Source of the DNA: an uncultured bacterium
GTDB lineage: Bacteria; Gemmatimonadota; Gemmatimonadetes; Gemmatimonadales; Gemmatimonadaceae
Direction of reading: 5' to 3'
Assembly (NCBI GenBank): GCA_963978095.1
Contig: CAXBQP010000029.1
Span: 1 to 40,935 of the forward strand
DNA: 40,935 nucleotides
The translations under genes and the position numbers were made by a program. Below, in pieces: positions 2,735 through 38,100 of this stretch (positions are counted from its first letter, which is position 1; every line of letters begins with the position of its first letter). The notes beneath the pieces are model-generated. The model did no database searches. It saw only the letters and a program-made list of their open reading frames with translations, and was not told the origin of the DNA.

Positions 2735-2740
2735 CGGCGG

Positions 2741-4263: not shown

Positions 4264-5033
4264 AGCGGGTCGTGAAGATCGGTGGGCGTGCCCAGGGCGA
4301 CGCACGGCTTCCGGCGGCGCTCGCGGCGGCGACGCTGGCGGCGCTGGCGACGCCGAGCGGCTTCCTGTGCGTCGTCCACGGGGGCGGCGACGAGGTCACG
4401 AATCTCCAGACGCGGCTCGGGCTGCAGTCGGCGTTCATCGGCGGACGTCGGGTGACGAGCGTCGAGGATCTGGAGATCGTGCGGATGGTGTTGTCCGGGG
4501 CCACCAACAAGCGCATGGTGGCGCAGTTGATTTCGCAGGGGGTGCGGGCGGTGGGGATCTCGGGTGAGGATGCCGGGCTCTTCACGGCGCAGATCACCGA
4601 TCCGGCGATGGGACGTGTGGGAGGGCGCGTCACGGTGCATGCGGCGCTGGTCGAGCACTTGGTACAGGGCGGGTTCGTGCCGGTGATCTCACCGCTGGCG
4701 CGCGACGCCGACGATGTGGCGGGTGCCGGACTCAACGTGAATGGTGACGATGCGGCCGCGGCGCTCGCGGCGGCGACCGGCGCCGACGAGCTGGTCCTCG
4801 TGGCGGATGTGCCGGGGGTGCTCGACGCCGGCGCGGTGATCCCGGAGATCGACGCCGCGATGGCGCAGCGGTTGATCAGCCGTGGTGTGGCGGCCGGCGG
4901 CATGGCCGCCAAGCTCGACGCCGCGCTCACGGCGTTGCGCGGTGGTGCCCAAGCGGTGCGAATTTCAGGGCTCGACGGTATCAGTGACCGCGGCGCCGGG
5001 ACGCGCATCGTGCTTTCCTCCCCTCAGGCGTAG
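4260..5033 (+). CDS. argB: Acetylglutamate kinase
   Basis: VVKIGG, VHGGG, RVT, NVNGD, DVPGV and GGMAAK motifs. ATGA overlap with the argC stop. Confidence 0.92.
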   Translation: MKRVVKIGGRAQGDARLPAALAAATLAALATPSGFLCVVHGGGDEVTNLQTRLGLQSAFIGGRRVTSVEDLEIVRMVLSGATNKRMVAQLISQGVRAVGISGEDAGLFTAQITDPAMGRVGGRVTVHAALVEHLVQGGFVPVISPLARDADDVAGAGLNVNGDDAAAALAAATGADELVLVADVPGVLDAGAVIPEIDAAMAQRLISRGVAAGGMAAKLDAALTALRGGAQAVRISGLDGISDRGAGTRIVLSSPQA

Positions 5034-5040
5034 AGACATC

Positions 5041-6228: not shown

Positions 6229-6256
6229 GACGCGCCGGACGCCGGACGCCGGATGT

Positions 6257-6297
6257 GACGAAGGGGAGCGCCGACACGATCGGCGCTCCCCTTCGTC
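6257..6297. terminator. Likely bidirectional intrinsic terminator hairpin
   Basis: Perfect 18-bp stem GACGAAGGGGAGCGCCGA / TCGGCGCTCCCCTTCGTC with a 5-nt loop, between convergent genes. GTTGTT follows on the + strand. Confidence 0.8.
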
Positions 6298-6312
6298 GTT
6301 GTTCGGTCCGGC

Positions 6313-7350
6313 TCAGTTACCCGGTTTCTGGCAGCCGTAGCGGAACTCCTTCTCGGCCGCCTTGGGGTTGGCGGCGATCTTCCAGAAGTCCGCGTTCCAC
6401 TTGAGCATCGACTTGCTCTTGTCTGGGGCCAGCGAGGGGACCTTGGCGAGCCAACCGTCGATGACGTCCTTCTTGGCGAGGAAGGCATCGAGCGTCGGCT
6501 TGAGCTGTGCCGCGGTGAGGCAGGGGCCACGATAGAGACGATCCGTGACGCTGCGGATCTTGAGGCGCGAGTCGGGAGCGGAGTAGCGCGTGTTGACGGC
6601 GCCGGACCAGTCGAAGTCGTACGCCACCGGGTCGAGCTTGGCGGTGGCGGTATCGCGGAGCATCACGATGTTGTGCAGTGCGGAGAGCGACCAGTCGGTG
6701 TTGCCGACGAAATACTCCCACACGCTGACGCGGGCGAGCGCCTCGGGATCGACGTCGTCGAACAGCGCGCCCTTGGTGGTGTCCGGCTTGAGCTTGAGGT
6801 GCTGGCCGACATCGCTGATGTCTTCGATGAAGAAGGCCCAGCTGGTGATCGGCTTGTCCTTGCTGAGCGTGTCTCTGTAGGTGATGCGCGCGAGACGGAC
6901 GCGGAAGCTCTCCTTGGAGATTTCGTTGTACATCTTGTAGAGCGCGTACTCCTGCAGGATGTACTGTTCGTACTCGCTGTCGCCCGGACGGCAGTTGGTG
7001 GTGATCTTGACCTTGGCGAGCCCGTTGAAGATCGAGGCCTTGGCGTCGCTGCTCTTCCAGTTGAGCCAAAGGGGCGGGAAGTCGCAGTTGCGGGCCTGAC
7101 GGCGGAAGTGGCCGCGGGCGCGCAGTGTGACGGGGAAGGTCACGGTCTTTCCGCCCTCGCCGGCGTAGCTCAGCACGCCGGGATGCTTGTTGATCGCGAG
7201 CGAGTCGCGCTGACGGAGCAGGGCCTTGAGTTCGGTGGTGATGGTGATGTTCACCACGGAGTCGCCCTTGAACAGCTTCTCCTGGGCTTCGGCGCGCGGG
7301 GCCCAGGCGAGGAGCGCGAACATGGCGAACAAGCGGAGAGGTCGGATCAT
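6313..7350 (-). CDS. Secreted protein with CotH-like atypical kinase motifs
   Basis: Signal peptide (MIRPLRLFAMFALLAWAPRAEA-Q), RARGHFRR, EYALYKMY, FFIED, GNTDWS..HN and PVAYDFD. GGAG precedes ATG 7350. Confidence 0.65.
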   Translation of the reverse strand: MIRPLRLFAMFALLAWAPRAEAQEKLFKGDSVVNITITTELKALLRQRDSLAINKHPGVLSYAGEGGKTVTFPVTLRARGHFRRQARNCDFPPLWLNWKSSDAKASIFNGLAKVKITTNCRPGDSEYEQYILQEYALYKMYNEISKESFRVRLARITYRDTLSKDKPITSWAFFIEDISDVGQHLKLKPDTTKGALFDDVDPEALARVSVWEYFVGNTDWSLSALHNIVMLRDTATAKLDPVAYDFDWSGAVNTRYSAPDSRLKIRSVTDRLYRGPCLTAAQLKPTLDAFLAKKDVIDGWLAKVPSLAPDKSKSMLKWNADFWKIAANPKAAEKEFRYGCQKPGN

Positions 7351-17945: not shown

Positions 17946-18650
17946 ATGCGCGATCGCCCTCGTCCCACGTCGCCGGCGCGTCCCAGAGCCGGAACCGCGA
18001 CCACCTCGCTGGATGTCGTGCTGTGCACGGCGCACGGCAACGCCTTGGCGGTGTTGCTCGTCCGCGCGTCGGCGCGGGACTCGTGGACGTTGCCGTGGGT
18101 GGGACCCGTGGCGGGCGAGCGGCTGGAGGTGACGGCCGCCCGCGTGGCCGCGGCAGCGTCCGGTGCGCCGGCCGCGTGGCTCACGCAATGCGGGGCCATC
18201 ACCGACACACGACGCCATCCGGGTGGTGCCGCGCTGTCGGTGGGGTTCGTCGGCGTGGCCCCCTCGCGACCGCTGCCACCACCGGGGTTCGGACAGTGGT
18301 TCGCGGTGACGGCGCTCCCCGCGTTGGCGCCCCGCCAGAGCGCGGTCCTCGCGCTGGCGCTGGCGGCACTGCGTGACCGGATGGATGTGGCCCCGGTCGC
18401 GTTCCATCTGCTGCCGCGCACCTTCACGCTCTCCGAGCTGCAGGCGATGTACGAGATCCTGCTCGGCCGCCGCCTGCACAAGGCCAGCTTCCGCCGCGCG
18501 CTGCAGGCGGCGTATCTGGTGGAACCCACGGACGAATGGCGGAGTGAGGGGCGCGGCCGTCCGGCCCAGCTCTTCACGTTCGCGCCGCGGAAACGACGGG
18601 CGTCGCAGGGGTCACGCCGCGCCGTGCGCTTCGATCTGCTCGCCGGCTGA
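17946..18650 (+). CDS. NrtR-like transcriptional regulator (degenerate Nudix + winged HTH)
   Basis: N-terminal Nudix-like fold (DVVL, VLLVR, WTLP, RHPGG..LSVGF) and C-terminal LLPRTFTLSELQAMYEILLGRRLHKASFRR ... GRPAQLF, typical of the NrtR DNA-binding domain. Confidence 0.85.
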   Translation: MRDRPRPTSPARPRAGTATTSLDVVLCTAHGNALAVLLVRASARDSWTLPWVGPVAGERLEVTAARVAAAASGAPAAWLTQCGAITDTRRHPGGAALSVGFVGVAPSRPLPPPGFGQWFAVTALPALAPRQSAVLALALAALRDRMDVAPVAFHLLPRTFTLSELQAMYEILLGRRLHKASFRRALQAAYLVEPTDEWRSEGRGRPAQLFTFAPRKRRASQGSRRAVRFDLLAG

Positions 18651-18712
18651 GGGGTCCTGCGGCGTCCCCCGTCGGCGTGACCAGCCCGTGACGGCGAGCG
18701 GGCGGCGCACCC

Positions 18713-18771
18713 TTGACGCGCGGTCCTATTAGTTGCAATGTGTATATAACGCTAAAAGGAATAAAGGTCCG
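18713..18771 (+). promoter_or_regulatory. AT-rich promoter region upstream of orphan gene
   Basis: TTGACG at 18713, then TATTAGTTGCAATGTGTATATAACGCTAAAAGGAATAAAGG, a strongly AT-rich island in GC-rich DNA ending in SD-like AAAGG. Confidence 0.55.
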
Positions 18772-19140
18772 ATGCTCGCGTACCTGGACGCCCTGATTGC
18801 CGCCGTCGCGGCCAACGACCGCGACGCCATGACCCGGCTCCTCGCCGACCCCAGGGCGCGCGTGTTGACCCGCGCCGTCCGACACGAGGTCCGGGCGCGA
18901 TCGGCGGCGGTGCGCCGCGACACCGACGGCCTGCGCGCATTCGGCGCGCCACTCCCGCTGCTGCAGCTCCGGCACCAGACCGCCCAGCTGCTCGACGGGC
19001 GTACTGACCACGAGGATCCGGTCGAATACCGCCCGCAGGCCCCGGCCGAGGCCCCGGCTCCGGTGCGTCGCGCGCCGTCTGCGGGAGGTGCTCCCGCGCG
19101 ACGGCGCTCCCGTCAGATCGAGTTGCCGCTCTCGGCCTGA
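18772..19140 (+). CDS. Hypothetical protein (122 aa)
   Basis: SD-like AAAGG before ATG 18772, a helical N-terminal part, a Pro/Ala-rich tail ending QIELPLSA, and GC-rich third codon positions. It overlaps the convergent gene by 28 bp. Confidence 0.65.
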   Translation: MLAYLDALIAAVAANDRDAMTRLLADPRARVLTRAVRHEVRARSAAVRRDTDGLRAFGAPLPLLQLRHQTAQLLDGRTDHEDPVEYRPQAPAEAPAPVRRAPSAGGAPARRRSRQIELPLSA

Positions 19141-20564
19141 GGGCGCGCGATCCGTCGCGTCACGGAATTCCCGGGCGTCCCGCGGATCGTCCCGCGACAC
19201 GCCGCCGAGCCACAGCGGCAGGGGAACGACGCCGCCTCCTCGTTCAGCAACTCCGCGAAGTCGATCGTCAGCTCGGTATCGGCGGCGATGTCCTGGAGGG
19301 CGACCACGTCCAACCCGCGAAAGCCGGTGTTGGGGGTGCAGGAGTGGTTCTGCGGCGCCCAATCCGAGGGCTCGTCGCTCCAGAGGACATAGACTTCGTC
19401 GCTCAGCGGGTACGCGTAGTGCTTGAACAGCTCCCGCTGCGCGTCCGTCCAGTGCGCACGGACGTGCGGCCGCGTGGTGATCCGCTGACTGCGCCCCTCA
19501 CCGCGGAAGATCGTCTCGCCGGCCGCGATGGCCCGCACGGCGTAGATCCCGTAGCCGCTGATCGCGCTGCCGCGCATCTCGTAGCACGTCTGCCGACGCG
19601 CATGCCGGGCGATCCCCTCCGCGATGATCCGCAGCAGGAAGCCCCGCTGCCCGATCCCGTCGTGCTTCACGATGTAGTCCGCCGACCCCTCGTAGCCGTC
19701 GGCGTAGAAGACGGAGCACGCGAAATTCACCTCGAGGAAGAACAGCTCGCCGGCCGCGTTCATCCGGAAATCCATCCGTGCGTATCCCACGGCATTGAAT
19801 CCGCCGAAGACCGCGCACGCCGCCGCCTTCAACCGATCGGCGAGCGGCGCGTCCGTGACCGCGACATTGGCCTCGGGATGCAACTCCGACGTCTTGTGCG
19901 CGTAGGTCTTGAACGGCGCCCCCGACGCGAAGCGGTACTCCACCGGGCGGAATGCCTCGCAGCCGCCGTCGGGATCCGCCACGACCAGCACCGTGAACTC
20001 GCGCCCGGCGATGTACTCCTCCACCAGCAGCTCCGGGTACTCCGGCAGGAGCTTGTCCACCTGTGCGCGGAGCGCAACGGCGTCCGCCACCCGCGCCTGG
20101 GCGTCGATCCCCAGGCTGTCACCCGCTTCCGACGGCTTCACGAACAACGGGAACCGGAGCGTCGTCGCGGCCCGCGCCAGATCGGCGTCCGCGTGCGCCG
20201 CACGCACCAGCACGTGCGCCGCAGACGGCACGCCGACCGTGTGCGCCACGTACTTCATGAGCGGCTTGGTCGGATTGTAGAGGGTCGGCGTCGGACCGGT
20301 GTACGGCAGATGCAGCAGCTCAAGCGTGTGGATCACGTCGATCGACGGGATGTCCCACTCGAGGTACCCTTCACACAGATTCACGAAGATGTCGTAGCCA
20401 GCGCCGGCCAGCGCCTTGAGCTGCCGATATGTGCTCCGCTTGTCGAGAGCGACGTGATGCACCTCGTGCTCGGGCACGAGCCGGGCGAGGTCGCGCGCCG
20501 GGTCGTAGTGCTGATAATCGACCGTCGAGCGCGCATAGTCGGGCTGGAGGACGCAGATCTTCAT
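19113..20564 (-). CDS. D-Ala-D-Ala-ligase-like ATP-grasp protein fused to SET and post-SET domains
   Basis: ATP-grasp motifs FPLFVKP, GDSLGI, EEYIAGREFTV, GYARMDFR and LEVN. SET motifs GYGIYA, NHSCTPN and ELTIDF, then post-SET CRCGSAACRG. Start ATG 20564 overlaps the upstream stop (ATGA). Confidence 0.85.
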   Translation of the reverse strand: MKICVLQPDYARSTVDYQHYDPARDLARLVPEHEVHHVALDKRSTYRQLKALAGAGYDIFVNLCEGYLEWDIPSIDVIHTLELLHLPYTGPTPTLYNPTKPLMKYVAHTVGVPSAAHVLVRAAHADADLARAATTLRFPLFVKPSEAGDSLGIDAQARVADAVALRAQVDKLLPEYPELLVEEYIAGREFTVLVVADPDGGCEAFRPVEYRFASGAPFKTYAHKTSELHPEANVAVTDAPLADRLKAAACAVFGGFNAVGYARMDFRMNAAGELFFLEVNFACSVFYADGYEGSADYIVKHDGIGQRGFLLRIIAEGIARHARRQTCYEMRGSAISGYGIYAVRAIAAGETIFRGEGRSQRITTRPHVRAHWTDAQRELFKHYAYPLSDEVYVLWSDEPSDWAPQNHSCTPNTGFRGLDVVALQDIAADTELTIDFAELLNEEAASFPCRCGSAACRGTIRGTPGNSVTRRIARPQAESGNSI

Positions 20565-21646
20565 GCCGGCGCCGCTCCGCCGGCGTGACGCCGTTCGAGC
20601 GCTTCGTCGATGATCTGGCGCACCGCCGTGCTGAAGGGCGTCTCCGCGAAGCGGAGGATCGCTCCGATCGAGGTGTGATTCTCGTCCTCGGACAGCCCGC
20701 ACTGCGCGTTCACCTCGAGCACCTGCAGCGCCCCGGTCGCCCGATCCTGCCGCAGATCCACGCGGCCGTATCCGCGCCCGCCGAGCGCGGCGTATGCTGC
20801 CCAGCTGATGCGCATGATCTCCTCCGCCAGGGCACCGGTCACCGGTTTGTAGTTCCAGAGATACTCATCGTTCCCGATCGGTGCTTCCTGTTCATAGATC
20901 TCCCAGAGGCGATCGAACGAGAGGAATTTCTCGGTCTCGGGAAGCCCCTCGTGGAAGAGTCGTTCGACCGGCGCGTACACGACGCGCCGCGCGGGTGCCT
21001 CGTGCGATCCGATGATGAACGTCGTGAACTCCGGTCCCTGCACGAACCGTTCGACGAAGATCCCGCCATCCCCGAGCTCCCATCCGCGATAGCCGCGTTG
21101 CAGGGTCGCGCACTGCTCACGGAGCGCGTGCTCGTCGCTGACCACATTCCTGGTGCCGATGCCCAGGCTCCCCGCGGAGATGGCAGGTTTGAGGATGAGC
21201 GGCGCCCCCAAGCGGTCGAAGATGCCGGCGATGTTGGCGCCGTCCGGCGGGATGACTTCCCACGGCGACGTGGGCACGTTCGCCCGGGCGAAGGCCCGCT
21301 TCATCACGATCTTCGATGTGGTGATGTCGAAGAAGTGCGCGTCGGCGCCGGTATAGTCGAGTCCGAGCTCGTTGAGCAGGTGGATCACCGAAAGGCCCGG
21401 CGAGCCGTTGCTCTCGTCGCCGTCGCACAGATTGAACAGGATCGGCGCGCGGTCCATCCCCGCGCGCGCCGCGTCCCGTGCGCCCTCGAGCGTGGCGCGC
21501 GCGCCGGCCATCGTGATGGGGGTCCACTGCCACGGGGTCGCGAGCGCCGCGAACGCGCGTGCGTACTCGGCTTCTCCCTGGGAGAAGTCGTTGTAGTAGG
21601 CGAGATTCGGGTCGGTGGTCTCGACCGTCGGGACGAGGACCCACAC
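20561..21646 (-). CDS. D-Ala-D-Ala-ligase-like ATP-grasp protein
   Basis: FNLCDG, YTGAD, PLILKP, SAGSLGI, ERFVQGPEFT, GYGRVDLR and LEVNAQCG. Confidence 0.82.
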   Translation of the reverse strand: MWVLVPTVETTDPNLAYYNDFSQGEAEYARAFAALATPWQWTPITMAGARATLEGARDAARAGMDRAPILFNLCDGDESNGSPGLSVIHLLNELGLDYTGADAHFFDITTSKIVMKRAFARANVPTSPWEVIPPDGANIAGIFDRLGAPLILKPAISAGSLGIGTRNVVSDEHALREQCATLQRGYRGWELGDGGIFVERFVQGPEFTTFIIGSHEAPARRVVYAPVERLFHEGLPETEKFLSFDRLWEIYEQEAPIGNDEYLWNYKPVTGALAEEIMRISWAAYAALGGRGYGRVDLRQDRATGALQVLEVNAQCGLSEDENHTSIGAILRFAETPFSTAVRQIIDEALERRHAGGAAPA

Positions 21647-21772
21647 AGGGCGCGGTGCGATGTCAGCGCTCCGGGTGGCAGCGCGCGCAGGACGGGAAAA
21701 TCATCCGTTCAAACTGCGGTACGTGCCCACACGCGACAAGAGCCGTCCGGGTCGTGCGGCGCGTCGCGCCGA

Positions 21773-22792
21773 TCATGGACGCCGCGCGACCTGCTCGAAG
21801 GGAATATTGCCGATCGGCCATTGGGCCCATCCGACGAGGTCAAAGTGCCACCACTCGGAGGGGTTCACCGTGAACCCTTCGCTCTCCAGCACGGCGCGGA
21901 GCAGGTCGCGGCGCCAACGCTCGAGCGACGTCCCACCCGGATAACCGGGATACGACCGATGCGAGAACTCGTCGTAGCCCCCGGGCATCCGGGCCGGTGT
22001 GCCATCGGCCAACGTGTACAGCGTCAGATCGACGGCGGCGCCGCGATTGTGCTTGGAGCCCGTGGCAGGATTCGCCACGAACTCGTGGTCGGCGCCGGTG
22101 GTCGCGTCCCAGAACATCCGGGTCACGTACCAGGGGCGGTATGCGTCGTGAATGAGCAGCCCGAACCCGTACCCCTTCAACTTCCGGTTCGCCCGGACGA
22201 CGGCGTCGGCCGCCGGGCGCTGCAGGAAGGCGCGCGCCTGCGAATACATGGCGGCGCCCATGAAGTTGTTGTCCGACGCATAGCGGATGTCGAGCCGGAT
22301 CGTGGGGTCGAGGGTGATCAACTCCACAAGGTCGGTCGCGCGCTTCCCCGCTTCGCGTGGCGGGGTCGCCGCACGCGCCGTACGCCGGAGGTCGGGAATC
22401 GGGTGCAACGGGGTGATGCGGAAGGTGACCCCCTCCTCCGTGCCAACGGCAAAGCGGACCGCCGGCTGTCCGCCCGGCACCGAGAGGCGAAGGCTCCCGT
22501 CGATTCGCATGAAATCACGGTCCGGCGTCACCGTGCGATTCCCGCGGCGTGAGAACGCCACCAGGGTGCCGTTGACCTCGGCAACGATCACCGTGTCCGC
22601 CCCGCTCGCGTACTCCCCGACGTACGGGCGCAACGCATCCGGAGCCGCGGGCGGAGCGGCCGCGATGGTGGCCAGCGCGATCGGCGCTGGCGCGATCGGT
22701 TGCACGAGTGACGCGCCCGCCTGTGCCAACAGTGGACTCGACAGGGTGCGTGCAACGATGGCGACGAATGTCGCGTGCCCGACGAACCTCAC
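21773..22792 (-). CDS. M15 D-Ala-D-Ala dipeptidase (VanX/DdpX-like) with signal-like N-terminus and extra N-terminal domain
   Basis: DIRYAS.NNFMG, DAYRP, Zn motif SKHNRGAAVDLTL and EWWHF. Confidence 0.88.
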   Translation of the reverse strand: MRFVGHATFVAIVARTLSSPLLAQAGASLVQPIAPAPIALATIAAAPPAAPDALRPYVGEYASGADTVIVAEVNGTLVAFSRRGNRTVTPDRDFMRIDGSLRLSVPGGQPAVRFAVGTEEGVTFRITPLHPIPDLRRTARAATPPREAGKRATDLVELITLDPTIRLDIRYASDNNFMGAAMYSQARAFLQRPAADAVVRANRKLKGYGFGLLIHDAYRPWYVTRMFWDATTGADHEFVANPATGSKHNRGAAVDLTLYTLADGTPARMPGGYDEFSHRSYPGYPGGTSLERWRRDLLRAVLESEGFTVNPSEWWHFDLVGWAQWPIGNIPFEQVARRP

Positions 22793-22826
22793 GACCCCCC
22801 GGAGCGGATCACAGGGGGCAGGGGAA

Positions 22827-23036
22827 TCAGGCGGCGCCGGCGATGTAGCGGGCGAATCGCCCGCAACTGGTGCATTTCAGCGTCACCTGACACCGCGGCG
22901 GCGGCGGAACATCGCCGGGATCCCGCTCGATCGAACCCGAGCAACTCGGGCAGGAGAGGGGCGATCCGTTGCGGTCGTTGGCAATCAGATTCAGGGCTTG
23001 CGCCGGGTTGAACGAGGCCGGACGAGGCTTGCGCAT
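22827..23036 (-). CDS. Small Zn-ribbon-like protein (69 aa)
   Basis: GGAG SD before ATG 23036, with CPSC and CTSC pairs. Confidence 0.6.
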   Translation of the reverse strand: MRKPRPASFNPAQALNLIANDRNGSPLSCPSCSGSIERDPGDVPPPPRCQVTLKCTSCGRFARYIAGAA

Positions 23037-23188
23037 GCATTCTCCACTGGATAACCCGGGCCCACGCGGCACCGGTTTTACACCCTCGAATCCTAATCAC
23101 GCCGGGTGCAGAATCGTAGTGGTCCGCCCCTCTGTTTCGGCATATGTTCGGGGAAAATCAACTATAAATGACGCTTGGAGTACCCCGA

Positions 23189-24712
23189 TCATCCCGCCAG
23201 GACCGGAAGTTCCCGGATCTTCTTGGCCCACTCCGCCGGTCCGGTCTCGTGGACGTTATGTCCTTCGGCGTCCACCGCGACGGTCACCGGCATGTCGGCG
23301 ACCTCAAATTCGTAAATCGCCTCCATGCCGAGGTCCTCGAAGGCCACGCATCGCGAACTCCGGATGGCCTTGGAGACCAGATAGGCGGCGCCGCCGATCG
23401 CCATGAGGTATGCGGCCTGGTGTTTCCGGATGGCGTCGAGCCCCACGGGACCGCGCTCGGCCTTGCCGATCATGGCGATGAGCCCGGTCTTGGCGAGCAT
23501 CATCTCCGTGAACTTGTCCATGCGGGTGGCGGTCGTCGGCCCAGCGGGTCCGACGACCTCATCACGCACCGGGTCCACGGGGCCGACGTAGTAGATGATC
23601 CGGTTCGTGAAGTCGACGCCGGGCGGCAAGCCTTGGCCGCCCGCGTAGAGATCGGCGATGCGCTTGTGCGCGGCATCGCGACCGGTCAGCAGCTTGCCAT
23701 TGAGCAGCAGCCGATCGCCCGCCTTCCAGCTTTGCACCTCGGTGGGGGTCAGCGTGTCGAGGTTCACATGCTTCGCGTTCCGGTCGGGGTGCCAGGTGAC
23801 GGTCGGCCAGTCGCCGAGCTTCGGCGTGGGGAGGTGCGCCACGCCGGAGCCGTCGAGCGTGAAATGCGCGTGACGCGTGGCGGCGCAGTTGGGGATCATC
23901 GCCACCGGCTTGCTGGCGGCGTGGGTGGGGTAGTCGAGGATCTTGATGTCCAGCACCGTCGACAGTCCGCCAAGGCCCTGCGCACCGATGCCGAGGGCGT
24001 TGACCTTGTCGAACAGCTCGATGCGGAGCTCCTCGATCCTGTTCTGGGGGCCGCGCGCCTTGAGCTGCGTCATGTCGATATGTCCCATGAGCGACTCCTT
24101 GGCGAGCAGCATGGCTTTCTCCGCCGTACCGCCGATGCCGATGCCGAGCATGCCGGGCGGACACCAGCCGGCGCCCATGGTGGGGACGGTCTTGAGCACC
24201 CAATCGACGATGCTGTCGCTGGGATTGAGCATCACGAACTTCGACTTGTTCTCGGAGCCGCCTCCCTTGGCTGCGAGTTTCACCTCGACGGTGTGACCGG
24301 GGACGATCTCGTAGTGGACGACGGCCGGCGTGTTGTCGCGCGTGTTCTTGCGGCTGAAGGCCGGGTCGGACACGATCGAGGCGCGGAGCACATTGTCGGG
24401 CTGCAAGTAGGCGCGTCGGACTCCTTCGTTCACCATATCGGTGACGGACATCGTGGCGTCCCAGCGCACATCCATCCCGACCTTGAGGAATACCACCACG
24501 ATGCCCGTGTCCTGGCAGATGGGGCGCTGTCCCTCCGCGCACATGCGCGAGTTGGTGAGGATCTGTGCGATGGCGTCCTTGGCGGCCGGCGACTGTTCTT
24601 TCTCGTAGGCGTCACCCAGCGCCGTGATGTAGTCGAGCGGGTGGAAGTACGAGATATGCTGCAGGGCGTCCTGGATGGACTGGATGAAGTCGGATTGCGT
24701 GATGACGGTCAT
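23189..24712 (-). CDS. fumA: Class I (Fe-S) fumarate hydratase
   Basis: PICQDTG, KGGGSEN, GWCPPG, NCAATRH, GRDAAH and GPAGPTTATRM. Confidence 0.93.
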   Translation of the reverse strand: MTVITQSDFIQSIQDALQHISYFHPLDYITALGDAYEKEQSPAAKDAIAQILTNSRMCAEGQRPICQDTGIVVVFLKVGMDVRWDATMSVTDMVNEGVRRAYLQPDNVLRASIVSDPAFSRKNTRDNTPAVVHYEIVPGHTVEVKLAAKGGGSENKSKFVMLNPSDSIVDWVLKTVPTMGAGWCPPGMLGIGIGGTAEKAMLLAKESLMGHIDMTQLKARGPQNRIEELRIELFDKVNALGIGAQGLGGLSTVLDIKILDYPTHAASKPVAMIPNCAATRHAHFTLDGSGVAHLPTPKLGDWPTVTWHPDRNAKHVNLDTLTPTEVQSWKAGDRLLLNGKLLTGRDAAHKRIADLYAGGQGLPPGVDFTNRIIYYVGPVDPVRDEVVGPAGPTTATRMDKFTEMMLAKTGLIAMIGKAERGPVGLDAIRKHQAAYLMAIGGAAYLVSKAIRSSRCVAFEDLGMEAIYEFEVADMPVTVAVDAEGHNVHETGPAEWAKKIRELPVLAG

Positions 24713-25993: not shown

Positions 25994-27136
25994 TTAGCGG
26001 GGCGCCGAGTCGAGCGACCGGTAGAAGTCGACCGTCGTGCGCGCGATGCTGTCCCACGATGAGGCGACCGCAGTTGCCTGCGCCGCGCACCGGAGCGCCT
26101 GCAGGCGCGCGCGGTCCGTACTCAGCGCGGCGATCACGTCGACGAATCCCTCCACGCTCGGCGGATCGATCAACAGACCAGCGGTCTGGCGGAGCAAGAG
26201 CTCACGACTGGCGCCCGCGTCGGTGGCCAGCGGGGCAAGCCCACACGCCATGCCTTCCACCAGCCCCACACTGAACCCCTCGCTCCAGCTGGGGTGCAGC
26301 AAGAGGTGGCACGCCTGCAGGAGCGTCGGAAGCTCCGCCGCTTGGTAGACCGGCCGCACTCGAATCACCGCATGTGCGCGCGGCGTGAAGTCGGCGAGCA
26401 CACGATCGGCGGACAGGCCCGTGCCCAGAAGGTCAAGCTCGAACGGGACACCCCGGTCGAGCAGTGCCTCGACGACCGCAGCGGTCAACGCGATCCCTTT
26501 GCGTGGGATCCAACTCCCCACGAAGGCGAGGCGCAGGGGCTGTGTCCTGGAGGAGTCCGGTGTCGGGGCGGGCAGGGCTCGCAACGCGTCGGAGACCGCA
26601 TTGGGACGCACCAGAAGTCGGGCCGAGGGGACATGCCATCGGTCGCGCGTGTAGGCGGCATCGCGGGCGTTGAGCATGACGATACCGTCGGCGTGTCGGA
26701 TGGATTGCTCGACTTCCCACAGCCGGTACCATCCGCTGTACAGGCGGTAGCCCAGTGACGGGGATCGTCCGTCCTGCGCCGCGTGATGCATCAGGGCCGC
26801 GTGTGCGGTGTGTTCCAGACCATGCGCCCGCGTCACGATCCGTGGTCCTCCAACGCGGCGCGCGAGCCAGACCCAGGCATCGCCGGTGGTCGCGTCGACG
26901 ACATCGAAGCGATGCCCTTCGCGTTTCAGGAATGCGGCGACACACCACGGGAAGAGCAGCCGATGCCCCCTCGGCGGACCGTCGGGAAAGGCATCCTGGT
27001 AGCCATAGGTGTGCACTTCATGCCCCAGCGCTCGCATGGCGTCGTGCAGGGAGAGCGTCGCGCCGCCGACGCCCGCGTTCCGCTCGACCAAGTGGTGCAT
27101 CACGAACAGGATGCGCAGGTGCGGCGCATGGCTCAT
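25994..27136 (-). CDS. Glycosyltransferase family 4
   Basis: LRILFV, FVGSWIPRKG and PSWSEGFSVGLVEGMACG (EX7E). ATG 27136 overlaps the GT2 stop. Confidence 0.88.
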   Translation of the reverse strand: MSHAPHLRILFVMHHLVERNAGVGGATLSLHDAMRALGHEVHTYGYQDAFPDGPPRGHRLLFPWCVAAFLKREGHRFDVVDATTGDAWVWLARRVGGPRIVTRAHGLEHTAHAALMHHAAQDGRSPSLGYRLYSGWYRLWEVEQSIRHADGIVMLNARDAAYTRDRWHVPSARLLVRPNAVSDALRALPAPTPDSSRTQPLRLAFVGSWIPRKGIALTAAVVEALLDRGVPFELDLLGTGLSADRVLADFTPRAHAVIRVRPVYQAAELPTLLQACHLLLHPSWSEGFSVGLVEGMACGLAPLATDAGASRELLLRQTAGLLIDPPSVEGFVDVIAALSTDRARLQALRCAAQATAVASSWDSIARTTVDFYRSLDSAPR

Positions 27137-27987
27137 CGGTCGGCCTCCCCCATGGCGACGGCGGCGCGCCGCTGCCATGCACCCCAATGCCGCAGCACAT
27201 GAGCCATCTCGGCGATGGTCGAGCAGCCCAGCACCAGGCTGTCGAGGGGCCGTGGCCGCGCGCGCACGGCGCGCGCGCGCGTGCTTCCGATGCGGCGCAA
27301 CAGCATGCCGAGCGAGAGCGGCTCGTGATGCAAGGTCGCATACAGGACCGCCGCGTAATGGGTGCGCGCGAGCGCGCCGCCGAAGGGATTGCGGCGCGGC
27401 GGATGGTCGACGACGGCATCCACGGCAAACTGTTCCCGGAGCGGGACTGCGCGCGCGCGGTGTTGCAGGTCGAGATCTTCGAAGTGCGCGAAGGGGAACC
27501 GTTCGTCGAAGCCCCCCAAGGTCTCGAAGGCCGTGCGTGCCACGAGCACGTTGCAGCTCCAGATGTACCGCCCCTGTTCGTTGATCGGTGCGTGGTCCAA
27601 CGGCGAGGTCCACGGTGCCCGGCAGATCACACGCCCCGGCACGATCTCGGCGTTCGTCGCGATCGCCGGCAGAAATCCCGCGAGCCACCCGGGATCCGGC
27701 ACGCAGTCGTCGTCGACGAACGCGATCCACGGCGCTGTCGTGTGCCGCGCACCGGCGTTCCGATTGCTGGCCGGGCCGCGCCGTGGGCCTGCCTGCCACC
27801 GGACCCACGGATACCGGCTACGTACCATCGAGGCCGTGGTGCTGGTGGGGCTGTCATCGGTGACGACGACCTCGTACGCGGCGGCGTCGAGTGTCTGCGC
27901 GCCGGGGGCGAGTCGGTCCAAGCAACGTGCGAGCGCGGCGGGGCGCTCGTACGTCGGGATGACGACACGGATGCGCGGTGCGGTCAC
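27133..27987 (-). CDS. Glycosyltransferase family 2
   Basis: VVIPTYER, VTDDS, GPASNRNAG, FVDDDC, GGFDERF and FEDLDL. Confidence 0.9.
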   Translation of the reverse strand: MTAPRIRVVIPTYERPAALARCLDRLAPGAQTLDAAAYEVVVTDDSPTSTTASMVRSRYPWVRWQAGPRRGPASNRNAGARHTTAPWIAFVDDDCVPDPGWLAGFLPAIATNAEIVPGRVICRAPWTSPLDHAPINEQGRYIWSCNVLVARTAFETLGGFDERFPFAHFEDLDLQHRARAVPLREQFAVDAVVDHPPRRNPFGGALARTHYAAVLYATLHHEPLSLGMLLRRIGSTRARAVRARPRPLDSLVLGCSTIAEMAHVLRHWGAWQRRAAVAMGEADR

Positions 27988-28715
27988 CGTGCCTCACCCG
28001 AGCCGATGGCGCGGCGCCACGCGACGCCCAGCTGCTGTGGATCCTCACCCGCGATCCGTGCGAATCGCCATCCCGCGCTTGTCGGAAGATGATCCCGGGC
28101 CGCGCGCCGCACCTGCGGGTCGACCCAATCGTGAAAAAGGATGACGGCATTGGCCGGCATCCGAGGCGCCACGATCCTCAGCTCATCACCGACGCCCGCA
28201 TAGTCGTGGCGGCTGTCCTGGAAGAAGACATCCGGCACCACGGTGTCGAGGACCGGCGGCATCGACTCGACCGATGGCTGTCCGCGATGCATCACGATCC
28301 ATGGCCGCAGAGCGGCCGCGATGTGCGCTCCTGCTTTCGGGTACAGGTCGAAGGTATGCACCGCGGTACCGCGGGTCGCGCGCACGGCCGCAGCCAGAAT
28401 GGAGGTCGAGAACCCCCAGTAGGTGCCGGTCTCGAAGACGATCGTGGGTCGCGCGGCGCACACGATCGCGAACAGCGCGCGCGCGGTGTCGGGGTGGACG
28501 GTGTTGGAGCGGGCGAATCCCGCGTCGAGTCGGCGAACGATCGGTGCCGGCAGCCATCGGCGCAGCTGGGTCTCGCGCCGGAGCAGGCGCACCATCGGGG
28601 CGAGCGCTTCCGTGAGCACATCGGCGGGCGGTTCGGTGAGCGCGCCACCGAGCGCGCCACCGAACGCCTCGGACAGGAAATCGGAGAGGGAGACGACGCG
28701 GTGGTCGTCGCTCAC
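27984..28715 (-). CDS. Class I SAM-dependent methyltransferase (Methyltransf_24-like)
   Basis: FETGTYWGFST, TFD, FFQDSRHDY and LFHD. Start inferred at the GTGA overlap (28715), with alternatives at 28721 or 28739. Confidence 0.78.
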   Translation of the reverse strand: MSDDHRVVSLSDFLSEAFGGALGGALTEPPADVLTEALAPMVRLLRRETQLRRWLPAPIVRRLDAGFARSNTVHPDTARALFAIVCAARPTIVFETGTYWGFSTSILAAAVRATRGTAVHTFDLYPKAGAHIAAALRPWIVMHRGQPSVESMPPVLDTVVPDVFFQDSRHDYAGVGDELRIVAPRMPANAVILFHDWVDPQVRRAARDHLPTSAGWRFARIAGEDPQQLGVAWRRAIGSGEAR

Positions 28716-29689
28716 GACCATCCGGTGGACCGGCGCCACACTTTGCGGTCGAGTCGCCAGTAGCGCTTGACCGAAAACTCTTCATCGCCCGGGAACATCT
28801 CGCTGTCGACGACCGCGTCGGTGAAGTTGTTGCCGTTCGCCGAGGACTGGTCGGCCCAGTGCAGCAGTTCCGCCTCAAGCGTCATCGGGCGCACGGCGGC
28901 GCCATGCTCCGGCAGGCCGTGATGCGACTGGATGAAGTGGTGCAGCTCGAGTTCCTGCACCTCCGTCAATGTGCCGGGTGGCAACGTGCGCAGGCGGCGG
29001 TCGAGCATGAGCGATCCGAGCACGATGTGCTGCAACAGGTAGCCGGCCTGCGTGTAGTCGAAGCCTGCGGCGCCGACCGAGTACGTCTCGACCTTCCCGA
29101 TGTCGTGCAGGAGCGCGCCGGCGGTGACGAGATCACGGTCGCCCCCCATGGTGGCGGCCGAGTGGCGTGCGATCGAGGCGACCTCCACGACGTGCAACAG
29201 GAGTCCCCCGACCAGCGCGTGGTGCCCGCGCGGGGCACCCGGGGTGCGCTCGAAGCGCGACCGGAACTCGTCGTCGGCGAAGAAGAGATCCACCGCCCGG
29301 CGCAACGCCGTGGAGGACATTTCGCCGCGCCACGCGTCCACCTGTGACCACAACGACTCGGTGGACTGGCGGATGCGCGGGAGGAAATCGTCGAGGTTGA
29401 TGGCGGCGCTGGGGACCACGCGCGGCGGGGTCGACAGCTTGATCTGTCGGCGTCCGAGGTAGAACTCGACCGTGCCGATGACCTGCACGACCATGCCGGC
29501 CTTGATGCCGGCCATGGCGGCGACCTGTTCCTTCCAGATGTTGGCGCTGATCGTGCCGCTGGCGTTGCCCAGTTGCAGCACCACGAAGGGATCGCCGGTC
29601 TTGGTCTGCTTGTCCTCGCGCGCGCGCACCATCAACTCATGCTGGACGCGTGTGCCTTCGACGAGCGATGGGATATCGAGGATGGCCAC
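28712..29689 (-). CDS. OB-fold + HD-domain 3'-5' exoribonuclease (YhaM/Cbf1-like)
   Basis: N-terminal OB fold (TKTGDPF..L.L..ASG.I.A.IW), HHALVGGLLLH, LLHDIGK, HIVLG, SHHG..EHG and P.TLEAELLHWAD. Confidence 0.88.
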   Translation of the reverse strand: MAILDIPSLVEGTRVQHELMVRAREDKQTKTGDPFVVLQLGNASGTISANIWKEQVAAMAGIKAGMVVQVIGTVEFYLGRRQIKLSTPPRVVPSAAINLDDFLPRIRQSTESLWSQVDAWRGEMSSTALRRAVDLFFADDEFRSRFERTPGAPRGHHALVGGLLLHVVEVASIARHSAATMGGDRDLVTAGALLHDIGKVETYSVGAAGFDYTQAGYLLQHIVLGSLMLDRRLRTLPPGTLTEVQELELHHFIQSHHGLPEHGAAVRPMTLEAELLHWADQSSANGNNFTDAVVDSEMFPGDEEFSVKRYWRLDRKVWRRSTGWS

Positions 29690-32658: not shown

Positions 32659-33504
32659 TCAGGCGGCCTTGTGACCAAGGCGATATCGCACGATCCAGTC
32701 CTTGCCGGCTTGCTCGATGACGGCCTCGCGCACGACCCCTGACGTCACGAGCATCTCGTGGGCGGGCTGCAGGACGCGTTGGAGGTGGGACGGGAATCGC
32801 TGCACCAGGGGGAGTTGCTCGGCGAGTTGCTCGAGGCCGATGCGCCAGGTCGTGTGTCCCTCCGCGCGCGCCAGCTCCAGCAAGCGGTAGAGGCGACGGG
32901 CGACGGGGCTGTTGAGCGCCCAATACTGCGACGACGAGAGGGCGATGCTCCACCGCGCGGCGATGTTGGCGCGGAGCGGCGCGGCGATCGTCACGCGTGC
33001 GTCTCCGGGCTCGTTGTTCGTGAGCAGCGGAAAGAGTCCGAGTTGGTCGCGGTCCGTGAGCCGACGGCGATCGATCTGCACGAGGGCCAGTATCGCCAAC
33101 GGCCCCGAGACGTGCGGGCCGTCGGCTCCTTCGCGGTAGCATGCCGAGGATTCGAGCAGGGTCCGTTCGAGCCGATTGAGCGCGGAACGGAGTTGCTCGT
33201 AGGTTCGACCATCGACGCGCCGCCCCATGGCCCGCAGGAACGCATGCAGCGTGAAGGTGACCGTCCCATCGGCGGGCGCGCCGGCGTCGTGATAGCGGCG
33301 CATCAACTCGACATACACGTCCTGGTCGAACGTACCCGGCAGTCGCTCTCCGGGTGCCGGCAGGACGCGCCAGCGACCGCCCGCGGGCGGGGACCAGCTG
33401 ATCACGGCCTCCTCGGCCGAGTCGCTGAGCCGAAAGATGGGGAGCGCCTCAAGGGAGCGATCGAGCACGATGGTGCGCGAGGGCTGCTTGCGGCGCGTGG
33501 CCAT
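32659..33504 (-). CDS. Plasmid-type replication initiator protein A-like winged-helix protein
   Basis: P.FRLS, LPGTFDQDVYVEL, FTLHAFLRAMG...GRTYEQLRSALNRL, Y.AL.SPVARRLYRLL and L.PAHE.L...G match RepA (RPA-family) initiators. Start ATG 33504 is inferred. Confidence 0.75.
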   Translation of the reverse strand: MATRRKQPSRTIVLDRSLEALPIFRLSDSAEEAVISWSPPAGGRWRVLPAPGERLPGTFDQDVYVELMRRYHDAGAPADGTVTFTLHAFLRAMGRRVDGRTYEQLRSALNRLERTLLESSACYREGADGPHVSGPLAILALVQIDRRRLTDRDQLGLFPLLTNNEPGDARVTIAAPLRANIAARWSIALSSSQYWALNSPVARRLYRLLELARAEGHTTWRIGLEQLAEQLPLVQRFPSHLQRVLQPAHEMLVTSGVVREAVIEQAGKDWIVRYRLGHKAA

Positions 33505-33571
33505 CAGGCGCGGGGAGGCAAGCCGCGGCGCGTCGACCGCGCGCGCGGCCGGCGGTGATCGGGTTGCGGAT

Positions 33572-34117
33572 TCATCGCAGCTCCTCACGGCCGAGCGCGG
33601 CGCGCACCGCTTCGCGGATGGCGATGATCACGGCGTCGCGCGCCGCAGGCGAGTCGTCGCGGACGTTGAGCTCGATGCCGTCCGCGACCGGAAGCCGGCG
33701 CCAGCTGACGGGTGCGTCGTCATCGTGCGCCACGGCGCGATCACTGCCGGCGCCGAGTGCCGGGGCGAGCGACTGCGCGACGCGTCGCTCGAGCTGATCG
33801 CCGGTGACGTCCTGCATCTCCGCCTTGATGGCGTCGAGCGTTTGCCCTTCGCGCTGACGGATCTTGATGGCAAGCAACTGCAGCAGATGCCGATAGTGAT
33901 ACGTGGCGGCCGTGCCTTTGCCTTCGGGATGATCGAGCAGCCCTGCCGCAACATAGAAGCGGACGGCGCGGGCACTCGGTGTGGCTCGTGCGGAGGCGTT
34001 GGTGGGGCGCATGCCGGCGGCATCGACGAGCGAGGTCGCATGCGAGGCGAGTCCCCGGGCGTTCCATGGAGCGTGGCGCGCGTGGGCGCGCAGAAGTGCG
34101 ACGGAAGACTCAGCCAT
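33572..34117 (-). CDS. MerR-like HTH protein
   Basis: PSARAVRFYVAAGLLDHP...ATYHYRHLLQLLAIK.RQ.EG.TL.AI and a C-terminal WRRLPVADGIELNV. Confidence 0.82.
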   Translation of the reverse strand: MAESSVALLRAHARHAPWNARGLASHATSLVDAAGMRPTNASARATPSARAVRFYVAAGLLDHPEGKGTAATYHYRHLLQLLAIKIRQREGQTLDAIKAEMQDVTGDQLERRVAQSLAPALGAGSDRAVAHDDDAPVSWRRLPVADGIELNVRDDSPAARDAVIIAIREAVRAALGREELR

Positions 34118-35157: not shown

Positions 35158-38100
35158 CTAATGGTGCGTGGTCCTGGCGAGTACGCCGTCCGGGAGATGG
35201 TGGTCCGCCGGGGTCGCATCGCCGGCGTGCTGGTCGCGGCTCCCGCGCCGCTTGAGCCAGATCGTGAAATCGTCCAGCAGTGAATACACGACCGGCACCA
35301 CGAACAGCGTGAGCAACGTACTGGTGATCAGGCCGCCGATCACGGCGTGTGCCATCGGGGCCCGTTGTTCGGCGCCTTCCCCGATTGCGAAGGCGAGCGG
35401 GAGCATGCCGAAGATCATGGCTACCGTGGTCATGATGATCGGACGGAGGCGGATGCGTCCGGACGCGAGGATCGCCTGGAGGCGATCCTCCCCTTCCTCA
35501 CGCCGCTGGTTCACGAAATCGATCAACAGGATGCCGTTCTTGGTCACGAGTCCCATGAGCATGATGATGCCGATCATGCTCATCACGTTGATGGTGCCCT
35601 TGGTGACCAGCAGGGCGAGCATGACGCCCAGGAAGCTGAGCGGCAGCGCGAGCATGATGGCCAGCGGCTGCAGGAACGACCCGAACAGCGATGCGAGGAT
35701 CAGGTAGATGAAGATCACGGCGAGCAGCAGCGCTTCGCCGACGTATCGCTTGGTGTCGTTCAGGTCCTGGACGCTGCCGGTGAAGACGGTGCGGTAGCCG
35801 GGCGGCAGCACCAGCGAATCGATGGCGGCCTTGGCGCGGTCGGCCACGTCGCCGATGGGCGTGTTCGGCAGCACCTGTGCATTGATGCGGATCTGCCGTT
35901 CCAGCGCGCGGCGCTCGATCTGTTGCGGACCGATGCCGGCCTTGATGTCGGCGACCTGACTGAGCATGACGCCGGCCGGGAGGCCGGTGCGGCCGTCGAG
36001 CCCCGAGCCGTTGATCAGGATGTTGGCGACATCGCTTTCGTTCCGGCGGAGCGAGTCGGGGAAGATCACCACCACATCGTGCGTATATCCGGCGGGATCC
36101 TGCCACACGGAGGCACGGAACCCGCTGAAGAGCGGCTGCAACGTGTTGGCGATGGAGTTGATGCCGAGGCCGGCCGCCCAGGCTTGCTGCCGGTCGACGC
36201 TCACATTGAGCTGCGGGATGTTCCCTTCGTCACTCGATTGCGGCTCGGCCATGCCGGGGACCTTCTTCATGGCCTCGAGGACTTGGCTCGCGATGAGCTT
36301 GAGGCGCTGCGGCTCCGGCCCCTGCACGTTCACGGTGATCGGTGCCCCGCGTCCGCCGAAGATGGTCTGGGTCTGTCCGATGCTGGCGTTGATGCCGGGG
36401 AACTTGCTGAGGGAACCGCGGAGCTTATTCTGAATCTCGAACTGCGAATGCGGGCGCTCGTTCCGTGCCTTGAGCCGCAGGTTGATGTTGCCGTTGTTGA
36501 TCCCGCCGCCTCGTCCGCCGGTGGAGAGCGACGTGAAGTCGAGATCGGCCGCGAACTCCTTGCGGATGTACGCATCGAGGGCGCGGGCCTTGCCGAGCGT
36601 GTACTGGAGATTCGAGCCGGGCGCGGTGCGGAAACCCACCGAGAACTCGCCGCCGTCGAAATCCGGCATCCAGGTGAAGCCGAGTTGGGTGTAGATCACG
36701 CCGGCGAGCACCACGGACGCCACGGCCCCGCCGAGGACCATGAGGCGATGACGCATCGCCCAGCGGAGCCCATTCGGGTAGTGGTCGGCCATGCGCTCGA
36801 ACCAGCGGTCGAAGCGGAGGGCGACGCGCCGGATCGGGCCGGCGCTGTCCCATGCCGCGGCGCCATGCTGGATGGCCTCGGGATCATGCCACACCGAGGA
36901 GAGCATCGGGTCGAGCGTGAAGGACACGAAGAGCGACACGATCACCGCGAAGCTCACCGTCACGCCGAACTGGAAGAAGATCTTGCCGATCTGTCCGCCC
37001 ATGAACGCGACGGGGATGAACACCGCCACGACGGCCATGGTCGTCGCGAACACGGCAAGTCCGATCTCGTCGGTGCCTTCCTTGGCGGCGCGGTGGTGAT
37101 CCTTGCCCATCGCCACATGGCGCACGATGTTCTCGCGCACGACGATCGCGTCGTCGATGAGCAGGCCGATGGCCAGGGACAGGGCCAGCAGCGTCATCGT
37201 GTTCACGGTGAATCCGAGCGCCCACATCGCGAAGAACGCGGAGATGATCGAGACGGGCAGGGTGAGCCCCGTGATGACCGTGGAACGCCAGGAGTTCAGG
37301 AACAGATAGATGATGAGGACCGTGAGCACGGCACCGACGCCGATGGTCAGCTGCACATCTTCCAGCGACGAGCGGATGCGCCGGGAATCGTCCTTGGTCA
37401 GTCGCAACTGGACGTCGGCCGGCAGTTGGCGCTCGATCTCGCTGAGCACGCTCTTGATGTTGTCGGCGACCTGCACCGTGTTGGAGCCGGAGATCTTGAG
37501 GACGTCGAGCGAGAGCGCGACGGTGTCCTTGTACAGCGATGCCGAGCGGCGCTCGGCGATCGTGTCGAGTACCGTGGCGACGTCTCGGACGCGCACCGGG
37601 GATCCGTTGCGGACCGTGATGACGAGGTCACGGAAGTTGAGCGGATCGGTGAGGCGCCCCGTGACGCGGACGCCGCGTTCGGTATCGCCCTTCTTGATGC
37701 GGCCGGCGGGCACTTCACGATTCTCGCGGTCGAGCGCGGTGCTGACCTGATCGGGGCTCAATCCGTAGGCCCGCATCGCAGCCGGGTCGAGCTCGACATG
37801 GATCTCCCGTGTCGCCGCCCCGCTCAGCTGGACGCCGCCGACGCCATTGACACTCTCCAGGCGCGGTCGGATGACCTGGTCGCCCAGGTCCGTGAGTTCG
37901 CGGAGCGAGCGTTCCTTGCTCAGCACGGCGACCGTCAGAATCGGCGAGTCGTTGGGGTCGTAGCGGGAGATCGACGGTTCCCCGATGTCACGCGGCAGTT
38001 GGCGACGGATGCGTCCCACCTTGGCCGAGACTTCCGGCTGCATGCGGGTGGGATCGATCCCGAGCTTGAACTGCAGTCGCACGTTGGCGCTGCCCTCCGA

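Follow-up and report, generated by a model that had tools for sequence, protein, structure and literature searches.

A conserved pair of Ddl-fold ATP-grasp ligases, one of them fused to a SET domain, in Gemmatimonadota, Bacteroidota and further phyla

Introduction

On a contig of a Gemmatimonadaceae bacterium (CAXBQP010000029.1, assembly GCA_963978095.1), three co-directional genes occupy positions 19113-22792 of the minus strand: a gene for an M15-family peptidase, a gene for an ATP-grasp ligase that we call grasp1, and a gene, grasp2-SET, in which a second ATP-grasp ligase is fused to a SET domain. This arrangement raises the question of which of the three genes belong together, and what they might make or modify. 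An earlier reading of the DNA, referred to here as the original prediction, had likened them to a Van cluster, with ligases derived from D-alanine-D-alanine ligase (Ddl) acting alongside a VanX-like peptidase. We analyzed positions 1 to 40,935 of the contig, which are the whole stretch and are called the window below; its G+C content is ~67%. Together, the ligase pair and the SET domain make up a unit that is conserved across phyla, and both ligases have the Ddl fold, yet are not Ddl or Van enzymes. The M15 gene is probably not part of this unit.

The locus comprises the following features, given in the direction of transcription.

21773-22792, minus strand: gene of the M15 D-Ala-D-Ala-dipeptidase family, 339 amino acids (Peptidase_M15, 2e-31); a neighbor of the pair in this window only
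21647-21772, minus strand: spacer of 126 bp from the M15 stop codon to the grasp1 start
20561-21646, minus strand: grasp1, stand-alone Ddl-fold ATP-grasp ligase, 361 amino acids, GTG start (Dala_Dala_lig_C, 4.2e-10)
20561-20564, minus strand: ATGA overlap of the grasp1 TGA with the grasp2-SET ATG, read from the sequence
19113-20564, minus strand: open reading frame (ORF) of the grasp2-SET fusion, 483 amino acids counted from the ATG, the stop codon ending at 19113
19590-20564, minus strand: grasp2, the Ddl-fold ATP-grasp part of the fusion, residues 1 to ~325
19176-19583, minus strand: SET and post-SET domain of the fusion, residues ~328-463

ORF and Pfam analyses thus place the ATGA-coupled ligase pair, the SET fusion and the upstream M15 gene just where the original prediction had them. 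In the fusion, Pfam reports Dala_Dala_lig_C at residues 109-280 (2.1e-18) and SET at residues 337-436 (4e-08). The GTG codon of grasp1 is its sole possible start downstream of the preceding in-frame stop. A promoter and terminator scan revealed neither a sigma-70-like promoter nor a minus-strand terminator-like site in the spacer at 21647-21772, and the three terminator-like sites that it did report are all on the plus strand and within genes. No match was obtained in an Rfam scan of positions 18500-23500 at E values up to 1.

The two ligases and the SET domain are conserved as a unit

Relatives of the fusion are encoded in at least 606 stretches found by a genome scan that took one genome per species, and they occur in Gemmatimonadota, Bacteroidota and further phyla. 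From these stretches, 80 loci were kept, and the locus counts given below rest on them: 8 are labelled Gemmatimonadota, 1 is from an unclassified high-GC bacterium, and 71 are from Bacteroidota, mostly Chitinophagaceae. Cultured strains of Lacibacter and Ferruginibacter are among them. Between phyla, the fusion proteins are 57-66% identical.

In 79 of the 80 loci the gene immediately before the fusion, in the same orientation, encodes a grasp1 orthologue; in L074, the exception, no such orthologue precedes the fusion. The start and stop codons of the two genes overlap by four nucleotides (ATGA or GTGA) in 14 of the 78 loci scored, and the fusion's 120 top-scoring homologues in the database, without exception, contain both Pfam domains. 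Moreover, grasp1, grasp2 and SET are joined in a single chain in three proteins of 831-844 amino acids (P0009, P0062 and P0107), and P0242 is a further protein of this composition. The synteny and the single-chain proteins together argue that the two ligases and the SET domain act as one functional unit, as the original prediction had supposed. The recurrence of the fusion, its pairing with grasp1 and the overlap of the two genes confirm that this association is more than chance.

Two loci, L008 and L010, carry about 1.1 kb of inserted DNA between the ligase genes; the insert in L010 holds an ORF of 330 amino acids on the opposite strand. In a complex prediction with grasp1 and grasp2-SET supplied as alignments, the score was 0.00 against a mark of 0.32, a value that bears neither way on a heterodimer.

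Neither ligase is a Ddl or Van enzyme, although both share the Ddl fold

Confident AlphaFold2 models were obtained for grasp1 (pLDDT 84.0, pTM 0.88) and for the whole grasp2-SET fusion (pLDDT 81.8, pTM 0.73), and in both the ligase has the three-domain architecture of Ddl-type ATP-grasp enzymes. For both models Foldseek ranks Ddl structures first, with E values of about 1e-19 to 1e-20 and TM-scores on the target of 0.73-0.81; over the Ddl matches as listed, these TM-scores reach 0.81 for grasp1 and span 0.66-0.81 for grasp2, at 16-23% identity in the structural alignments. By sequence, grasp1 matches DdlB in the PDB (7e-12), and the two ligases are 29% identical to each other. The motifs KP, G.SLGI, E..x.G.EFT, GY.R.D.R and LEVN, listed in the original prediction, are found in both ligases, and alignment to DdlB shows that the equivalents of K97, K144, E180, E187, R255, D257, E270 and N272 are invariant in both. 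Since these residues serve ATP and Mg2+ binding, both ligases should be catalytically active, as far as can be judged from their sequences.

That the best matches in sequence and in structure are Ddl enzymes would suit a simple explanation, namely that the pair consists of extra D-Ala-D-Ala ligases to which the SET domain is irrelevant. However, both ligases fall far below the cut-offs of the corresponding family models: against TIGR01205 (Ddl; cut-off 245.65 bits) grasp2-SET scores 81.1 and grasp1 59.9, against PRK01372 (cut-off 243) the scores are 72.3 and 78, and the best of the Van-ligase models, VanG, reaches 57.2 bits against a cut-off of 495. Pfam reported no Dala_Dala_lig_N match in either ligase. 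Residues that we take to bind D-Ala in DdlB are also replaced: the position of E15 is occupied by S in grasp2 and T in grasp1, that of S150 by an invariant D in grasp2 and G in grasp1, and the position of Y216 holds no Tyr in either ligase, although the alignment of the omega loop is uncertain. The omega-loop equivalents are FKTYAHKT in grasp2 and FLSFDRLW in grasp1, and the N-terminal GGxSxE motif of E. coli DdlB occurs in neither protein, both as originally described.

A maximum-likelihood tree is consistent with this separation. It was built by a quick search from 47 sequences, with a long-branch warning, and its six references were E. coli DdlB, two plasmid Ddl proteins, VanA, VanB and a VanG-like ligase. 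A branch with SH-aLRT support of 99 separates all six references from the grasp1 clade (support 100) and the grasp2 clade (support 99), and grasp2 groups with more distant SET-fused ligases (support 93). The ligases share with Ddl and with the VanA, VanB and VanG ligases the fold and the ATP/Mg residues, and differ from them in their low identity, in scores below the cut-off of every NCBIfam model, in forming clades of their own, in the loss of the D-Ala-binding residues, and in being encoded as a pair with one copy fused to SET. The view that neither is a true Ddl, put forward in the original prediction, is borne out by these data.

The substrate loops of Ddl are replaced in these proteins by stretches with invariant acidic residues, namely D9, D16, D21, D76, D149 and D154 in grasp2 and CDGDE in grasp1. 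Given these acidic residues, a basic, amine-rich substrate would fit.

A related Ddl-type ATP-grasp, with 32% identity over 61% of the query, also occurs in a 943-residue protein of the green alga Mesostigma viride (P0243), which additionally contains a clostripain-family (C11) peptidase domain.

The fused SET domain appears functional

The SET domain of the fusion scores 34.1 bits against a Pfam cut-off of 22.4. In an alignment of 15 homologues, which share 60-88% identity with the window protein, G337-Y338-G339, N406-H407-x-C409, E431-L432-T433 and the cysteines C449, C451 and C456 are invariant. Across homologues the motifs GYG, NHSC.PN, ELT.D(Y/F) and the post-SET C.CG...C are invariant or nearly so, the last aromatic residue of ELT.D(Y/F) being F in the window protein. 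The post-SET domain recognized in the original prediction is likewise well founded, its CxCx4C motif being present and invariant over the 15 homologues. By these motifs, the SET domain looks functional. Such strict conservation speaks against a SET domain that contributes nothing, and together with the low model scores, the replaced D-Ala residues and the separate clades it makes the idea of two extra D-Ala-D-Ala ligases extremely improbable.

In the model, the SET domain comes after a long helix, almost without a linker. Judging by the pTM of 0.73 for the whole chain, ligase and SET domain appear to be held in a fixed arrangement. The best sequence matches of the SET domain in the PDB are SET1, MLL and ASH1L, which are protein-lysine methyltransferases. 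A weak match (2.4e-5) to BurB (PDB 9l4t) covers residues 407-463 and is confined to the part from NHSC to post-SET.

A search of the whole library with HMMER, using the SET region alone, yielded 2423 representatives at E values up to 1e-3 and 311 at E values up to 1e-10. A grasp2-type ligase region is present in 85 of the 150 best SET-region representatives, and both Pfam domains were found in 39 of the 130 that were scanned with Pfam. These counts tie the SET clade to this kind of ligase. Chains of the form ATP-grasp-SET-SET also occur, and the second SET domain of one of them (P0253) resembles the stand-alone SET protein of Bacteroidota described below.

Some relatives have other architectures. 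Three proteins of 1415-1479 amino acids (P0246, P0316 and P0383) each contain eight SET-like stretches of the clade to which the SET domain of the fusion belongs, and P0246 additionally carries a fragment of a Ddl-type ligase domain. In a group of proteins of ~440-520 amino acids (P0290, P0293, P0313, P0320, P0346 and others alike) the SET domain is again C-terminal, and Pfam recognizes nothing in the first 300 residues. A family hidden Markov model, applied to a subset of these proteins, detects in this N-terminal region only a weak resemblance to the front half of the grasp2 ligase, and the region may represent a degenerate or diverged ligase domain. One further protein, P0272, in which an amidase is joined to half of a SET domain, was left unused as an apparent chimera.

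The M15 gene is probably not part of the conserved unit

The original prediction had suggested that altered Ddl-type ligases and a VanX-like M15 dipeptidase remodel the termini of peptidoglycan stems. The M15 protein is, to judge by its residues, an intact M15D-type dipeptidase. It matches Peptidase_M15 (PF01427) with 109.8 bits against a cut-off of 27 (2e-31), and when aligned to VanX (1r44) it keeps YRP, SKHNRGAAVD (SxH..G.A.D) and EWWH, presumably the metal-binding and catalytic motifs of VanX-type enzymes. Its intact motifs, its position adjoining the ligase pair and its shared orientation favor the suggestion, as does the occurrence of unrelated peptide hydrolases beside the pair elsewhere, an M19 dipeptidase in L001 and a PF00144 serine hydrolase in P0241. 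The protein nonetheless differs from VanX and DdpX in scoring below both NCBIfam cut-offs (DdpX, 139 vs 176; VanX, 86 vs 320) and in having an extra N-terminal region of ~150 residues, which opens with a moderately hydrophobic, signal-peptide-like stretch ending in AQA. This N-terminus suggests that the M15 protein may act in a different compartment from the ATP-dependent ligases.

The distribution of the M15 gene also weighs against a role with the ligases. A homologue is present in only 1 of the 80 loci (L001), where it lies 7.7 kb downstream of the pair, with several large ORFs in between, of which three have the opposite orientation. Six Gemmatimonadota-like loci have enough sequence for a comparison of the upstream neighbor, and in none of the six is it an M15 gene; the neighbors are instead an M19 dipeptidase, an LVIVD-repeat protein, a TonB-dependent receptor, a caspase-family peptidase, an unknown protein and a MatE transporter. 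A Pfam scan of 54 flank ORFs, comprising one ORF per similarity cluster of the immediate Bacteroidota neighbors and three Gemmatimonadota-like downstream neighbors, contained no peptidase. Across the window, no family of the VanH, VanT or VanRS type was found among the 35 ORFs scanned. The window does encode several other peptidases (M28, S33-like and S41), so that a chance adjacency of the M15 gene is plausible, and peptidase genes are abundant in its lineage.

Since the M15 gene and the ligase pair hardly co-occur among the 80 loci, a Van-like unit is largely refuted. This lack of co-occurrence is the very outcome that the original prediction had named beforehand as refuting its proposed tie between the peptidase and the ligases. 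The wider analogy with Van clusters fails as well, given the lack of VanH, VanT and VanRS families in the window and the placement of the ligases, with their replaced D-Ala-binding residues, outside the clade of VanA, VanB and the VanG-like ligase. We consider joint remodeling of peptidoglycan stems very unlikely, and the M15 gene probably encodes an independent, secreted enzyme outside the conserved module. Database labels for the module proteins, which include “D-alanine-D-alanine ligase”, “VanC family” and “protein-lysine N-methyltransferase”, are misleading as automatic annotations, and our results offer no support for a role in vancomycin-type resistance.

Other hydrolases near the pair deserve brief mention. 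In L001, the closest relative fetched (66% identity), a gene for an M19 ‘membrane dipeptidase’ with a signal-peptide-like start lies directly upstream of grasp1 (L001 positions 5340-6776, plus strand). The presence of an M19 gene there and of an unrelated M15 gene in the window could reflect chance or non-orthologous replacement. In P0241, from Latescibacterota, grasp2-SET is joined to the PF00144 serine hydrolase through a linker that looks like read-through of an intergenic spacer. Peptide hydrolases were considered as a recurring partner on the basis of these three cases, all from genomes outside Bacteroidota, and of the caspase-family peptidase in L024. The examples are few and come from unrelated families, the M15 and M19 proteins look secreted and P0241 looks like a product of read-through; the idea was left as a weak lead.

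Two other genes recur beside the ligase pair

A six-helix ABC-type membrane protein (PF13748, ABC_membrane_3) is encoded directly downstream of the pair in 52 of the 76 loci with at least 1 kb of downstream sequence, and it occurs in both phyla. It is present in five of the nine Gemmatimonadota-like loci, and split copies were seen in two further loci (L050 and L052). Between phyla the membrane proteins are 58-63% identical, the same degree of conservation as that of the ligases. They lack an ATPase (nucleotide-binding) domain and have only the transmembrane part; a search on the PF13748 family yielded nothing useful. The second recurring gene, for a stand-alone SET protein of ~165 amino acids, immediately precedes the pair in 63 of 75 loci, none of which is Gemmatimonadota-like. 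The window has neither the membrane-protein gene nor the second SET gene, and because both are absent it carries the minimal, two-gene version of the module.

Apart from these two partners, the flanking genes are heterogeneous. Precursor peptides were sought by simple clustering of ORFs of 25-95 amino acids, and the conserved clusters that emerged all lie inside large genes, in other frames. No conserved small ORF outside genes was found within -4.5 to +5 kb in the 80 loci, a method that could miss very short or divergent precursors. Likewise, no candidate target gene recurs in the flanks.

A possible route to an N-methylated peptide-like product

We propose that the module makes a small, amine-bearing, peptide-like metabolite by two ligations followed by N-methylation, and put the probability of this reading at about 0.5 on the strength of sequence and model comparisons. 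In this scheme, grasp1 and grasp2-SET would constitute a conserved cytoplasmic module with three activities. Each Ddl-fold ligase would form an acyl-phosphate and couple the activated carboxylate to an amine, so that two active ligases may carry out two ATP-dependent couplings and create one or two amide bonds. The fused SET domain would then use S-adenosylmethionine to N-methylate an amine of the product, and the fixed arrangement of ligase and SET domain in the model suggests that both would act on the same product. The most likely product would be a di- or tripeptide, or a conjugate of an amino acid with an amine. The ABC-type membrane protein encoded in most of the other genomes could be an exporter of the product or an anchor for the enzymes, and in Bacteroidota the second SET enzyme might add methylation capacity. 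The order of the reactions, the nature of the substrate and the export step are what we infer; the domains, motifs, fold, conservation, synteny and fusions are observed, as is the position of the ligases outside the Ddl and Van families.

Several considerations lead us to favor a small molecule as the substrate. Ddl and its structural neighbors ligate small molecules, a gene for an exporter-like membrane protein usually accompanies the module, and neither a precursor gene nor a target gene recurs nearby. There is also a bacterial precedent for a SET enzyme with such a substrate: BurB of Burkholderia thailandensis S-methylates methionine, a free amino acid and not a protein, according to PMC12542666. 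BurB is a stand-alone chain of 180 residues without a ligase partner, however, and its similarity to the fusion spans only 57 residues.

Other observations weigh against this proposal. An identity of 57-66% between phyla is unusually high for an enzyme of secondary metabolism, and would suit a conserved macromolecular substrate. The membrane protein is missing from the window and from 24 of 76 loci, and export is unproven because the protein lacks a nucleotide-binding domain. No gene for substrate supply (racemase, aminomutase or decarboxylase) recurs in the flanks, and no member of the module has a known product, substrate or activity. Finally, since the best matches of the SET domain are protein-lysine methyltransferases, a protein substrate would be equally natural.

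This last point leads to a different explanation, in which a protein or ribosomal peptide is the target of the module. The ligases would add amino acids to a side chain or the C-terminus, as do RimK and the tubulin-tyrosine ligases (TTL), or cyclize a peptide as in microviridins, and the SET domain would methylate a lysine of that target. The kinship of the SET domain with histone-lysine methyltransferases, its canonical post-SET zinc motif and the very high conservation across phyla are all in keeping with such a role. Both ligases have the Ddl fold, however, and are not of the RimK or TTL kind; we take RimK, TTL and the microviridin ligases MdnB and MdnC to be classed apart from Ddl-fold enzymes. 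Together with the lack of a conserved small ORF and of a recurring target gene in the flanks, this makes modification of a protein or ribosomal peptide, the main rival to our proposal, possible but less likely than it in our view.

Two known systems lend this explanation some precedent. PMC7823629 describes microviridin clusters with two ATP-grasp ligases (MdnB and MdnC), an N-acetyltransferase (MdnD) and an ABC protein proposed as a scaffold (MdnE). The module resembles these graspetide clusters in having a ligase pair in fixed order and an enzyme for N-tailoring, and the ABC-type membrane protein encoded beside it in 52 of 76 loci may be a further parallel. It differs in that the microviridin ligases act on a ribosomal precursor peptide, for which no gene was found here, and in having Ddl-type ligases, SET in place of a GNAT tailoring enzyme, and a membrane protein without an ATPase domain.

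The domain order of the second system, the eukaryotic protein TTLL12, is opposite to that of the fusion. TTLL12 joins a SET-like domain to a TTL-like ATP-grasp domain in one chain, and the human protein does not catalyze histone methylation, as stated in PMC3520985. Its ligase domain is of the TTL type, and the likeness to the fusion is one of domain content.

Other features of the window

Just upstream of the M15 gene, at 22827-23036 on the minus strand, lies an ORF of 69 amino acids that is rich in cysteine, with a CxxC ... CxxC pattern like that of a zinc ribbon. It has only sub-threshold matches (DUF7836, 16.2 vs 26.7 bits; ECs_2282 CxxC, 17.6 vs 37) and no homologue among the 80 loci. Elsewhere in the window, Pfam analysis of the 35 ORFs shows genes for arginine biosynthesis, fumarase, glycosyltransferases and RND efflux in addition to the peptidases named above. 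The regions 1247-6225 and 35161-40911 hold arginine genes (argininosuccinate lyase, the ArgR repressor, a semialdehyde dehydrogenase and a class-III aminotransferase) and a three-gene RND efflux set (AcrB-like, HlyD-like and outer-membrane factor), which look like ordinary chromosomal context. Amid chromosomal-looking genes, an ORF at 32662-33588 (minus strand) matches Replication initiator protein A (PF10134, 4.7e-19) and may be the remnant of a plasmid or integrated element.

A sugar-modifying cluster at 25994-28739 (minus strand) consists of GT4 and GT2 glycosyltransferases and a Methyltransf_24 protein. The GT4 ORF, of 604 amino acids, shares ~675 bp with the GT2 ORF, and no Pfam domain starts in it before residue 246; for both reasons its true start probably lies further downstream.

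Discussion

To our knowledge, SET domains are characterized almost only as protein-lysine methyltransferases, and Ddl-fold ligases are known mostly as enzymes of the cell wall. Links between SET domains and peptide ligases may already have been noted by the group of Iyer. Our literature search found no paper on a bacterial ATP-grasp-SET fusion; it did not cover the amidoligase survey of Iyer et al. 2009, where a prior mention is possible. We regard the module as an ATP-grasp amidoligase system with a fused tailoring enzyme.

A more specific picture can be offered only tentatively. The module may represent an undescribed route, independent of the ribosome and of nonribosomal peptide synthetases, to an N-methylated and possibly quaternary-ammonium oligopeptide or amino acid-amine conjugate, with an ABC-type membrane protein lacking an ATPase as its site of assembly or its recipient. 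Alternatively, it might be a bacterial counterpart of the tagging of proteins by a ligase and a SET domain in eukaryotes.

In either case, a ligase-SET fusion conserved in at least 606 stretches points to an unknown metabolite or modification. Cultured hosts of the module exist, among them Lacibacter cauensis, Lacibacter luteus and Ferruginibacter paludis. On either of these readings, amide ligases fused to a SET methyltransferase would make up a new class of enzyme, with members in at least 600 species of bacteria.

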